A DNA stretch of 5,025 nucleotides. It comes from a virus (Duplodnaviria > Heunggongvirae > Uroviricota > Caudoviricetes). The notes below the pieces were generated by a model. It searched no databases. It had not been told where the DNA came from and saw only the letters and a list, made by a program, of their open reading frames with translations. A program made the translations under genes and the position numbers. This document shows positions 297-1,375 of the stretch, piece by piece (position 1 is the first letter of the stretch; each line of letters starts with the position of its first letter). The stretch lies in IMG/VR virus record IMGVR_UViG_2681813313_000011. One strand, 5' to 3'.

Positions 297-381
297 GAAT
301 TTCTCCCGTGTAGAGGAACAGAGTTAAAAAGCCGGAAGCGGAATCAAATCACAGGATGACCATCTGCCAGTGGCTGGTCGT

Positions 382-408
382 AAAAAAAAGGCCGCGCCAT
401 GCGCAGCC
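382..408 (-). terminator. Rho-independent terminator between the small membrane ORF and the esterase gene
   Basis: Minus-strand RNA GGCUGCGC-AUG-GCGCGGCC forms an 8-bp GC-rich stem (one G-U pair) with a 3-nt loop, followed directly by 8 U (forward A-run 382-389). Confidence 0.6.
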
Positions 409-609
409 GAAAATAAAGGGATAACGATGATAGTTTGAGAAAAACAGAAATAACACTTTTGTGGCAAAGCATGGTGCCGGGTGCCTCCCGGTGAATTCAG
501 TATCAGCACCTGAATCCGCGATTACCCCATATTCCTTCTTGCTGATTGCCCCACCGCACAGGGGGATTCACCATGCAGAAGTGTTTTTAATAAACAGCAA
601 ACAAAAAAA

Positions 610-777
610 TCAAGCATTATGCAGGCTGTTTCTTTTTATCACCGGCCACAGCAATACCATAATGCCGCAGACCAGCACTCCATCCGCCAGCACCGACATG
701 ATTCTGCTGGTGAAATCCACCATCACCACCAGAAACAGCAGGAGTGCAGCCACAGTCAGGCGCAGTTTTACCGTCAC
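610..777 (-). CDS. Hypothetical small membrane protein, 55 aa from GTG (37 aa if from ATG at 723), two predicted hydrophobic helices
   Basis: Translation MTVKLRLTVAALLLFLVVMVDFTSRIMSVLADGVLVCGIMVLLWPVIKRNSLHNA. GTG start overlaps the TGA of the upstream TerB-like frame (GTGA), with GGAG 8 nt upstream. Contains rare codons AGA (x2) and ATA. Not in the ORF track because the ATG-initiated version is below the size cutoff. Confidence 0.4.
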   Translation of the reverse strand: MTVKLRLTVAALLLFLVVMVDFTSRIMSVLADGVLVCGIMVLLWPVIKRNSLHNA

Positions 778-1206
778 AGGTAATTCTCCAGACGAAGACC
801 CAGAACACCGGCAATCTCTTCCAGCACCTTGCGCTCTTCCGGCTCAATTTCGCCGTCTGCCTCCGCAATGGCCACCGCCACATCCAGCACATCTTCCGCT
901 TCACGCGTATCGTGTTTCACATCCTCGATCTCACGTAACGCCGCACGACGACCAGTTTTAAAGTTCGTATCCAGCTGACCGATAATGGTTGCGCTAATCG
1001 CATTAATTTCTGACGTAAACGCGTACAGCGCAGGCTGATTACGCAGTACCTGTTCGATCTTCGCTTTCTAGGAAGCCTCACATTCACCATCTGCACAGGC
1101 CACCAGGTATGCGGCGTTAATCACCACCTGTGCCAGATCGCGTTTTTCAAACTTTCTAATTTCCGTTGCCGCTCTGCGGGCTTTTTTTACCAAAAATACC
1201 AAACAT
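774..1206 (-). pseudogene. TerB-like (tellurite-resistance TerB family) gene, disrupted by a +1 frameshift in a 7-nt homopolymer and an in-frame TAG
   Basis: ATG at 1206-1204 with AGGA Shine-Dalgarno 8 nt upstream. The ATG frame stops after 16 codons (MFGIFGKKSPQSGNGN). Removing one base from the A7 run (forward T-run 1182-1188) restores MFGIFGKKARRAATEIRKFEKRDLAQVVINAAYLVACADGECEAS-(TAG at 1068-1070)-KAKIEQVLRNQPALYAFTSEINAISATIIGQLDTNFKTGRRAALREIEDVKHDTREAEDVLDVAVAIAEADGEIEPEERKVLEEIAGVLGLRLENYL. The repeated A-ADGE plus acidic helix pattern is TerB-like. Confidence 0.55.
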
Positions 1207-1375
1207 CGTGACGTTCCTTTGGGTGGGTGAGCCAACGCCCGGGAGCGATCTGCCCACAGAGAAAGTCACACTGACCACTCCATAAGCTCCCCCCGAAAGG
1301 CTCTGTGGTTGGTATGCGCCGGGCGTGGTGCGGATACAAAAAAGGTCCGCAAAAGCGAGCGAGGGAAAATAAGTG

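Follow-up and report, generated by a model that had tools for sequence, protein, structure and literature searches.

Evidence for a decaying tciA–tciB cassette with a candidate structured leader RNA in the stx-equivalent slot of a lambdoid phage late region

Introduction

In phage P1, the genes tciA, tciB and tciC belong to the ban operon, which is under C1 control, and are flanked by trnA/trnT and trnI (GenBank annotation). The first two are also annotated under these names in phage JLK-2012, the same names are in use for D6, Fostie and Pollock, both families are listed in PHROGs (632 and 1470), and hundreds of genomes carry a PGAP annotation of the pair. In papers on P1-like and D6-like phage-plasmids, the tci genes appear as variable cargo (PMC9603915, PMC6799933), and a 2026 preprint on prophage small RNAs (sRNAs) names TerB and RusA among the conserved neighbour genes (10.64898/2026.05.13.724894). 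In this study, we analysed a 5,025-nt stretch of DNA from a phage of the Caudoviricetes (IMG/VR record IMGVR_UViG_2681813313_000011), hereafter the window, and within it the slot between a tRNA array and a nanS-p-type esterase gene, the position in which Stx phages carry stxAB. The slot very probably carries, as judged from sequence, a decaying copy of the tciA–tciB phage accessory cassette, and the cassette is headed by a conserved structured leader that is a candidate new regulatory RNA. Coordinates refer to the whole window, every gene of which is on the minus strand; the features described below are on this strand unless marked (+).

Results

The tciA–tciB pair

The upstream gene of the pair, tciA (774..1206; start ATG 1206–1204, stop TGA 776–774), is a TerB family member by descent, but a pseudogene in the window. 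After repair of its frame, the 143-amino-acid (aa) TciA scored 45.3 bits with the Pfam family TerB (PF05099; cut-off 24.4). It also matched PHROG 632 ("tellurite resistance") along its entire length (E 7e-68) and the solved TerB structure 2JXU over residues 15–137 (E 3.7e-7). The TerB-like open reading frame (ORF) that an original prediction, made from the letters alone, had placed in this slot is upheld by these homology searches. The repaired protein carries a net charge of −7 and lacks hydrophobic spans. Two acidic motifs, ADGxxxxxE, mark the TciA family, D39, E46, D117 and E124 being its invariant acidic residues, and Glu46 is the glutamate of the first motif; a reading frame intact with both motifs is not present in the window copy, where the Glu46 codon is TAG and the ATG frame is shifted. 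A search against NCBIfam gave only a weak DjlA-type TerB-like match, far under the cut-off, and PADLOC gave no defence-system match.

The downstream gene, tciB (610..777; start GTG 777–775, stop 612–610), is intact and encodes a 55-aa two-helix membrane protein of the DUF3927 family (PF13064, phrog_1470). TciB matched PF13064 with 60.4 bits (cut-off 25) and PHROG 1470 ("TciB-like") with an E value of 2e-29, and its hydropathy profile shows two hydrophobic spans with lysine or arginine residues at both ends and in the loop. The tciB start codon overlaps the tciA stop in the motif GTGA, so the geometry of translational coupling is real, and tciB also has its own GGAG at 789–786, 8 nt before the start. 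The coupled 55-aa two-helix membrane ORF of the prediction therefore stands, on the family match, the hydropathy profile and the GTGA overlap.

By gene order and sequence, tciA–tciB appears as a conserved unit that extends beyond temperate phages. A TciB hidden Markov model placed tciB directly after tciA in all seven sampled enterobacterial phage loci, the phage loci with the pair including JLK-2012, P1, D6, Fostie, the virulent N4-like phage Pollock and the Erwinia jumbo phage ChrisDB. The same arrangement was found in 21 of 22 full loci from other Enterobacterales, which were retrieved with a TciA alignment. TciA homologues were detected by tblastn in 131 phage records. The core of TciB, VDFTSxIMSxLADGxLV, hardly varies, whereas identity in TciA drops to 27–40%. 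In the identity check, the intact allele aligned with TciA and TciB of P1. At least 80% of window positions 280–1400 is held by 646 of 5426 complete E. coli genomes (~12%), the nearest matches being 99.9% identical.

The pair has tRNA genes as neighbours in phage backbones that are unrelated to each other, which may reflect a common hot spot of insertion or a link in function. In the window and in loci L002, L005, L012 and L015, the tRNA genes beside tciA–tciB are Ile-Arg-Arg in the window, Asn-Thr-Gly in JLK-2012, trnA/trnT with trnI in P1 and Asn/Thr/Ser in D6, and in ChrisDB the pair is inside a tRNA cluster; it is not beside tRNA genes in Pollock, Fostie, AF and K479. In phage 434 (L004 1612–2599), the slot between Q and the esterase gene likewise contains tciB, but without tciA and preceded by a gene for a multi-pass membrane protein of 247 aa. 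In Pseudomonas phage AF (L013 1932–2153), an unannotated ORF for a 73-aa single-helix membrane protein overlaps the stop of the TciA homologue by 4 nt, which is the coupling geometry of tciA–tciB with a protein that is not homologous to TciB.

A conserved structured leader upstream of tciA

About 170 nt between the last tRNA gene and tciA are near-invariant behind three different tRNA arrangements, and the leader therefore belongs to the cassette rather than to the tRNA array. A covariance model, for which only the nested helices H1, P2 and the inner hairpin were used, matched a leader of ~146 nt in the window at 1201..1345 with 155 bits. The leader was also found upstream of tciA in loci of Pantoea, Pseudescherichia, Franconibacter, Buttiauxella, Citrobacter and Enterobacter and in jumbo phage ChrisDB, and it is kept even at loci whose TciA is only ~40% identical to that of the window. 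Nucleotide identity was higher in the leader than in tciA in eight of eight comparisons (for example, 85.7% vs 65.3% and 80.7% vs 62.3%). No frame is open throughout the members, and 1-nt indels occur between them, so a conserved ORF was not found in the leader. The covariance model gave no match in P1, D6, Pollock, AF or K479, and nhmmer gave none in the Stx1 phage locus L008. The possibility that tciA follows a riboswitch or leader of a known family was rejected: when short regions of the window and of phage Fostie were scanned with the 4227 covariance models of Rfam 15, nothing matched on the leader strand, even at E values as high as 10. The leader is present in 20 sequenced phage records, none of which marks it as RNA; in phage Fostie, a spurious-looking coding sequence (CDS) for a 58-aa "hypothetical protein" overlaps it (L007:2242–2418).

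The proposed fold is a pseudoknot that buries the tciA ribosome-binding site. It starts with a local hairpin, H1 (1331–1327 with 1320–1316), whose loop pairs with a distal segment to form helix P1 (1325–1321 with 1240–1236). Helix P2 (1308–1301 with 1261–1254) encloses the segment X (1300–1285) and the inner hairpin (1276–1264). X pairs with Y (1233–1216), which contains the tciA Shine-Dalgarno sequence AAAGG at 1220–1216. In the intact cassette, X reads CCUUUCRGGGGUGAGCC and Y reads GGCUCACCC..AAAGG, and the X:Y pairing crosses both P2 and P1.

The leader alignment comprised 95 instances (88 distinct), including IMG/VR contigs gathered by a pattern search; the first pattern, GGTGAGC..GGCTCACC, was loose and palindromic, gave mostly chance matches, and was tightened by adding the Shine-Dalgarno sequence. 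Over the 88 distinct sequences, 97.1% of the cells were paired, against 33–46% in slid registers. Pairs changed on both sides numbered 24 vs 8.5 ± 2.0 in shuffled alignments (0 of 500 reached 24), and further pair types 61 vs 44.6 ± 2.4 (0 of 500). Compensatory changes were found in every helix, in 4 of 5 pairs of H1, 3 of 5 of P1, 7 of 8 of P2, 6 of 16 of X:Y and 4 of 5 of the inner hairpin. An alignment-free duplex test was applied to 21 distinct leaders outside the pattern selection. The X:Y duplex reached −17 to −33 kcal/mol in 20 of them, 2.7 to 8.7 standard deviations better than with shuffled Y, and CCUUU always paired with the AAAGG of the ribosome-binding site.

Several points weigh against this fold. 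The alignment was fitted to H1, P2 and the inner hairpin, with P1 and X:Y left unfitted, and in the IMG/VR rows the search pattern itself forced the X:Y core. The single-sequence fold is no more stable than shuffled sequences (z 0.11) and is uninformative. RNAalifold proposed an alternative nested fold with pairing as good as that of the pseudoknot, and the leader may therefore adopt two conformers; since it leaves P2 and P1 unexplained, the nested fold was kept as a possible conformer only. On balance, the fold of the leader is quite likely real.

In nearly every sequence inspected, the leader is preceded by an intrinsic terminator with a U tract, the hairpin sequence of which differs by lineage. 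In the window, this hairpin and U tract (1335..1360) are degenerate, with one stem mismatch relative to the GGCTCGC-TTCG-GCGGGCC-T6 of relatives, and in RNAfold the stem does not form. The window leader itself has two helix-breaking changes, GCACC in H1 (GCGCC in relatives) and the lack of the U of GGGGGUGAGC in X, and its X:Y duplex is the weakest in the clade (−22.1 vs −26.9 kcal/mol). These lesions of leader and terminator therefore fit with decay of the whole tciA expression unit.

Among 93 distinct leaders, 21 precede genes other than tciA, often after lysis genes. The other cargo includes an Ant/KilAC anti-repressor, a secreted NMT1/TAXI-like solute-binding protein (phrog_6856) and proteins of unknown function. 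Since its copies front unrelated cargo genes, the leader can be regarded as a portable 5′ module. Paralogous copies lie at L007:4973–5097, L025:5473–5599, L159:8843–8996, L161:14199–14349 and L062:7231–7368, and in L242. In PPompW prophages (e.g. LC567822.1 15675–15721), the first ~47 nt of the leader remain after tRNA-Arg and are followed by the IS110-family element ISEc20, and an insertion sequence has therefore disrupted the same slot there.

Lesions of tciA and their distribution in E. coli

The lesions of the window copy were read against the intact tciA allele of phage JLK-2012. Codon 46 (1068..1070) is an amber TAG in place of GAG, by comparison with JLK-2012 and with the family alignment, in which Glu46 is invariant across the homologues of P1, D6, N4-like, jumbo, Pseudomonas and Vibrio phages; this amber codon is an unambiguous knock-out. 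The other lesion is a run of seven A residues (A7) at 1182..1188, against six (A6) in ATG-started alleles, which gives a +1 frameshift after codon 8. As all other lineages keep an ATG-started N-terminus, MFG-F-KK, A6 is taken as ancestral.

A plain frameshift lesion was the first reading of A7 and has been softened. PGAP calls the allele identical to that of the window a pseudogene on account of an "internal stop" and avoids the frameshift by a TTG start at 1202–1200; it annotates A7 copies without the TAG as intact 142-aa proteins from this TTG and A6 copies as 143 aa from the ATG. A7 is thus a derived state of uncertain consequence. Speculatively, the A6/A7 run in GGT-AAA-AAA-GCC could slip in transcription or translation, and a +1 slip would restore the ATG frame of A7. 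With the amber codon at Glu46, the ATG frame shifted by the extra A and two helix-breaking changes in the leader, TciA cannot be made from the window copy, and the broken TerB frame reported in the prediction is confirmed at both positions. TciB and the sRNA downstream are intact in this copy and may still be expressed, tciB possibly because it has its own GGAG.

Allele frequencies were taken from exact-probe searches of E. coli records, scored by the best place per record. With a 61-mer for codon 46, TAG was matched exactly in 521 records and GAG in 50; with an 81-mer for the A-run, A7 was matched in 556 records and A6 in 8. The carriers come from humans, cattle, pigs, chickens, fish, giant panda and cucumber and belong to several serotypes. 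Other lesions occur as well, namely A7 alone (L009, L011), TAG with an intact ATG frame (L118) and a different 1-nt deletion near the start (L079), and PHROG 3920 corresponds exactly to the 48-aa C-terminal fragment ORF of tciA. tciA is intact in all 22 full loci from other species of the Enterobacterales, and tciB is intact in every copy examined. Recurrent decay of tciA in E. coli prophages is the simplest reading of these data.

The sRNA, the terminator and the late-region backbone

Downstream of tciB, a member of the STnc100/PasD family of prophage sRNAs was detected at 433..605 (Rfam RF02076, 100.8 bits, gathering score 47). It is followed at 390..408 by an intrinsic terminator with an 8-bp G+C stem and U8, which was found by a terminator scan and has a folding energy of −15.4 kcal/mol in RNAfold. 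The STnc100/PasD-type sRNA and the cassette probably both end at this terminator. In phage 434, the homologous region contains a curated terminator, and between the tciB stop and the esterase start the window and phage 434 share 75% identity. According to the preprint of Zhu, Shabalina and Storz, STnc100 is related to PasD, and PasD lies directly upstream of a sialate esterase gene, as in the window (10.64898/2026.05.13.724894). Two further candidates were rejected here: the sRNAs PasA and PasC would, by the synteny given in the preprint, lie beyond the esterase gene and outside the window, and a 31-aa ORF after tciB, considered as a third gene like tciC, is unlike P1 TciC and is overlapped by the STnc100 match.

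The slot is bordered downstream by the 5′ part of a nanS-p-type esterase gene of the DUF1737/SASA family (1..295, start at 295; PF08410, E 1e-16), the homologue of which is annotated by PGAP in identical loci as a nanS-p-like SASA family carbohydrate esterase. Its upstream border is the tRNA array (1376..1625), called by ARAGORN, Rfam tRNA matches and PGAP and composed of a tRNA(CAT) at 1550–1625, given as tRNA-Ile (Ile2) by PGAP in identical loci, tRNA-Arg(TCG) at 1466–1542 and tRNA-Arg(TCT) at 1376–1452, both tRNA-Arg in PGAP. A sigma-70-like site, TTGCAA-17-TATTAT (1663–1635), was found by the promoter scan directly upstream of the array. Antiterminator Q of the Q82 type lies at 1838..2533 (PF06323, E 1e-92; PGAP), with a late-promoter-like site overlapping its end (1854–1826); this site and the terminator after it were called by consensus and homology only. 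Downstream of Q, a tR′-like hairpin with a U8 tract (1772–1746) sits at the position of a curated terminator in the phage 434 record; over the last ~35 codons of Q and the next ~55 nt, the window shares 85% identity with the Q82-type region of phage 434, and 1800–1735, which contains the hairpin, folds with −17.3 kcal/mol in RNAfold.

The backbone of the Stx phage late region is thus present, with Q, the late promoter and terminator, the Ile-Arg-Arg tRNA genes, cargo and the nanS-p esterase gene, and no stxA or stxB ORFs were found in the window, tciAB occupying the slot instead. The order in an Stx1 phage (Shigella phage 75/02) is stx1A, stx1B, ~95 nt, a stretch 92.6% identical to window 590–469, and the esterase gene, and in Stx2 phages an STnc100-like element lies 75 nt downstream of stx2 (PMC12370729). 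Since stxB in the Stx1 phage likewise precedes the STnc100-like stretch and the esterase gene, tciAB is in the stx-equivalent position. Both the Stx-type lambdoid backbone and the stx-equivalent slot had been proposed from the letters and agree with the annotations and with these two gene orders. The description of the slot as two ORFs was right about the TerB-like and membrane ORFs and overlooked the STnc100 sRNA, its terminator and the structured leader.

Upstream of Q, in transcription order, lie hok/sok, a 135-aa ORF without assignment, a DUF968 gene and RusA. The type I toxin-antitoxin system hok/sok was identified by Hok at 4605–4393 (PF01848) and sok at 4717–4543 (RF01794, 110 bits). 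Just downstream of hok, a weak isrK-like Rfam match (4303–4384) scored 27 bits, under the gathering score of 50, and probably reflects no more than a terminator-like hairpin. In identical loci, PGAP annotates a spurious-looking partial pseudo-CDS at window 272–415 (+), opposite the terminator and the esterase start. In E. coli FORC_042 (L009:2146–2230), tRNA-Ile is followed by an apparent hybrid of two tRNA-Arg genes, with the 5′ part of one and the 3′ part of the other, that is unannotated by PGAP; this suggests deletion by recombination between the two tRNA-Arg genes.

Discussion

Expression and a proposed role of the cassette

A moron in the sense of Hendrix is a gene flanked by its own promoter and terminator. 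The cassette has the downstream terminator (408–390), and upstream of it the relatives have a terminator rather than a promoter. A consensus scan found no sigma-70-like site between the tRNA genes and tciA at the thresholds used, although a weak or activated promoter could escape such a scan, and late, Q-dependent expression of tciAB is for this reason a reasonable inference from position. The pair is present in virulent phages, the P1 copy is under the C1 repressor, and a terminator stands immediately upstream of the cassette, which together argue for a role in lytic growth and not in lysogenic conversion.

An intact cassette would read, from 5′ to 3′, terminator, ~146-nt leader, tciA and tciB, followed in lambdoid phages by the STnc100/PasD-type sRNA and its terminator. 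During lytic growth, Q-modified RNA polymerase would read through tR′ and the upstream terminator of the cassette, and the leader would hold the translation of tciA low, or make it conditional, on a very abundant transcript. TerB associates with the membrane protein TerC. By this precedent, soluble and acidic TciA may dock on the inner-membrane protein TciB at the cytoplasmic face, and the complex may protect the membrane of the infected cell from stress, pore-forming attack or superinfection until lysis. Phage-inhibition and pore-forming-colicin-resistance phenotypes are known for ter operons (cited in PMC7371120). The membrane-protection role of tciAB is proposed by this analogy, and we consider it rather doubtful.

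The leader may be a signal-responsive switch, although we would not expect this to be the more probable outcome. It could represent an undescribed class of portable translational control RNA that gates accessory cargo on late transcripts in temperate and some virulent phages of Enterobacterales, a proposal that we put forward only tentatively. With the same reserve, the pseudoknot is pictured as hiding the ribosome-binding site until it is opened by a metabolite or ion, temperature, an sRNA or cleavage by RNase III.

As a whole, this account of cassette identity, decay and proposed working is the likely explanation of the locus. Some observations nevertheless count against it. In a CRISPR interference (CRISPRi) screen, tciA, tciB and tciC were all non-essential in P1 (PMC10695390), and the papers found on phage TerB, TciA and TciB repeat homology annotation and report no experiment or phenotype. 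Q-dependence is argued from position only, and the site at 1663–1635 could drive Q-independent transcription of the tRNA genes and possibly of the cassette. The contact of TciA with TciB and the membrane location are inferred from the TerB–TerC precedent. The dominance of the amber allele could mean selection rather than simple decay.

Alternative explanations

The last point leads to an alternative in which the broken state itself is selected, so that a cassette with only TciB (and the sRNA), or the split TciA fragments, benefits the lysogen and has thereby spread the amber allele. The excess of TAG over GAG (521 vs 50 records) and of A7 over A6 (556 vs 8) would fit such a history, as would the occurrence of the amber allele in strains of many hosts and serotypes, the intact tciB with its own GGAG, the presence of tciB without tciA in phage 434 and a PHROG (3920) that matches exactly the 48-aa C-terminal fragment. 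However, the alleles were counted per record in a collection rich in closely related Shiga toxin-producing E. coli (STEC), and clonal inheritance can explain the counts, which make no correction for clonal relatedness. Several different tciA lesions occur, the leader and upstream terminator of the amber allele are disrupted as well, which is the pattern of relaxed selection, and 22 of 22 copies from other species are intact. We regard selection of the broken state as unlikely. A still less probable alternative is that tciAB acts from the repressed prophage as a lysogenic-conversion module and, as the ter operon does, makes the host resistant to tellurite, colicins or phages. In its favour are the names of the genes, the Phi/PacB/Te(R) phenotypes cited for terZABCDE (PMC7371120, PMC9603915), the detection of the neighbouring STnc100 sRNA in STEC cultures without induction (PMC12370729), and a promoter-like site upstream of the tRNA genes. 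Yet TerB stands here alone, with no terC, terD or terZ, the tciA–tciB pair is carried by strictly virulent phages, a terminator precedes the cassette, the tciA ribosome-binding site is sequestered, and the P1 copy is under C1 repression.

For the leader, an explanation at the level of DNA, such as a promoter, an operator or a recombination joint between mosaic modules, was weighed against a functional RNA structure. The leader does form the left edge of the module whichever tRNA set precedes it, conservation extends to many of its unpaired nucleotides, and its single-sequence fold is unremarkable. Against these stand the compensatory changes in all five helices, two of which were not used for building the alignment, the persistence of X:Y complementarity in divergent paralogues before other genes, the 1-nt indels between members with no frame open throughout, and the failure of a promoter scan and sequence inspection to reveal a consistent −35/−10 pair in the leader sequences; a DNA-level element is accordingly improbable. 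The least credible alternative is the original view of the cargo as an undescribed, late-expressed moron pair peculiar to this slot. That the papers on tciA and tciB repeat homology annotation only speaks for it. The pair is nevertheless named in P1, catalogued in Pfam and PHROGs, annotated by PGAP, discussed in the phage-plasmid and CRISPRi papers (PMC9603915, PMC6799933, PMC10695390), and found in many phage types and in the share of complete E. coli genomes given above, and we consider this view very improbable. The claim that the pairing matches no described module has to be withdrawn, as it is tciA–tciB of P1. The prediction had named a common, already characterised module as the result that would overturn it; the module is common, in 646 of 5426 genomes, and characterised by homology annotation only. 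The cargo is a known, common module, and the prediction was wrong about its novelty and right about its context.

Significance

As first stated, the finding adds little, since the stx-equivalent slot of non-Stx lambdoid prophages commonly holds tciA–tciB. What seems worth following is the uncatalogued conserved leader RNA and the fact that tciA is repeatedly lost while tciB is kept, whether by decay or by selection for TciB only. Occurring in P1, phage-plasmids, lambdoid, N4-like and jumbo phages, tciAB is among the most widespread phage accessory modules without known function, and the pair is a good target for functional work because TciB is far more conserved than TciA. If a leader opened by a specific signal does gate its translation, tciAB would be a conditionally translated membrane-protection device and not a constitutive late gene. 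If the switch is real, it would explain how phages control the amount of cargo protein made from a very strong late transcript, which bears on the expression of genes in the toxin slot.

Comparison with known systems

Compared with TerB of terZABCDE (2JXU), TciA shows near-full-length homology, both ADGxxxxxE motifs and a similar size. In contrast to the ter operon, no other ter gene was found beside the TerB gene in the window or in 13-kb annotated contexts, and the partner is a 55-aa membrane protein, not TerC. Tellurite resistance from TerB alone is neither shown nor expected, as has been argued for phage PMBT3 (PMC8421299).

With stxAB of Stx phages, tciAB shares the slot after Q, tR′ and the tRNA genes and before the STnc100-like stretch and the nanS-p esterase gene. 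The genes are unrelated, and tciA has a leader that sequesters its ribosome-binding site, which was not found in the Stx1 locus L008. The sRNA of the window resembles STnc100 (RF02076)/PasD in a score well over the gathering score and in its position directly upstream of a sialate esterase gene; it differs in that the match lacks the 3′ hairpin of the Rfam model, a separate terminator lying 25 nt downstream.

Long-range pairing hides the ribosome-binding site in the rpoS leader, lambda cIII, preQ1-II and SAM-II. The tciA leader resembles such translational operators in an upstream segment that pairs with the Shine-Dalgarno sequence ~70 nt away, in its pseudoknot topology and in its competing pairings, but Rfam scans gave no sequence or Rfam relationship to any of them. 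Its conserved structure with compensatory changes (24 vs 8.5 ± 2.0) is what a generic structured cis-regulatory leader would be expected to show.

The closest system is the tciA–tciB(–tciC) module of P1, D6-like phage-plasmids and JLK-2012. The window TciA is only 40% identical to that of P1, the window has no tciC-like ORF and P1 no structured leader, and the P1 genes are in the C1-controlled ban operon, whereas the window genes stand behind Q and the copy is a pseudogene. Common to both are the order of a phrog_632 TerB homologue and a phrog_1470 DUF3927 homologue on the same strand, as expected of a P1-type module, the overlap of stop and start codons, the lengths of ~142 and 55 aa and the neighbouring tRNA genes.

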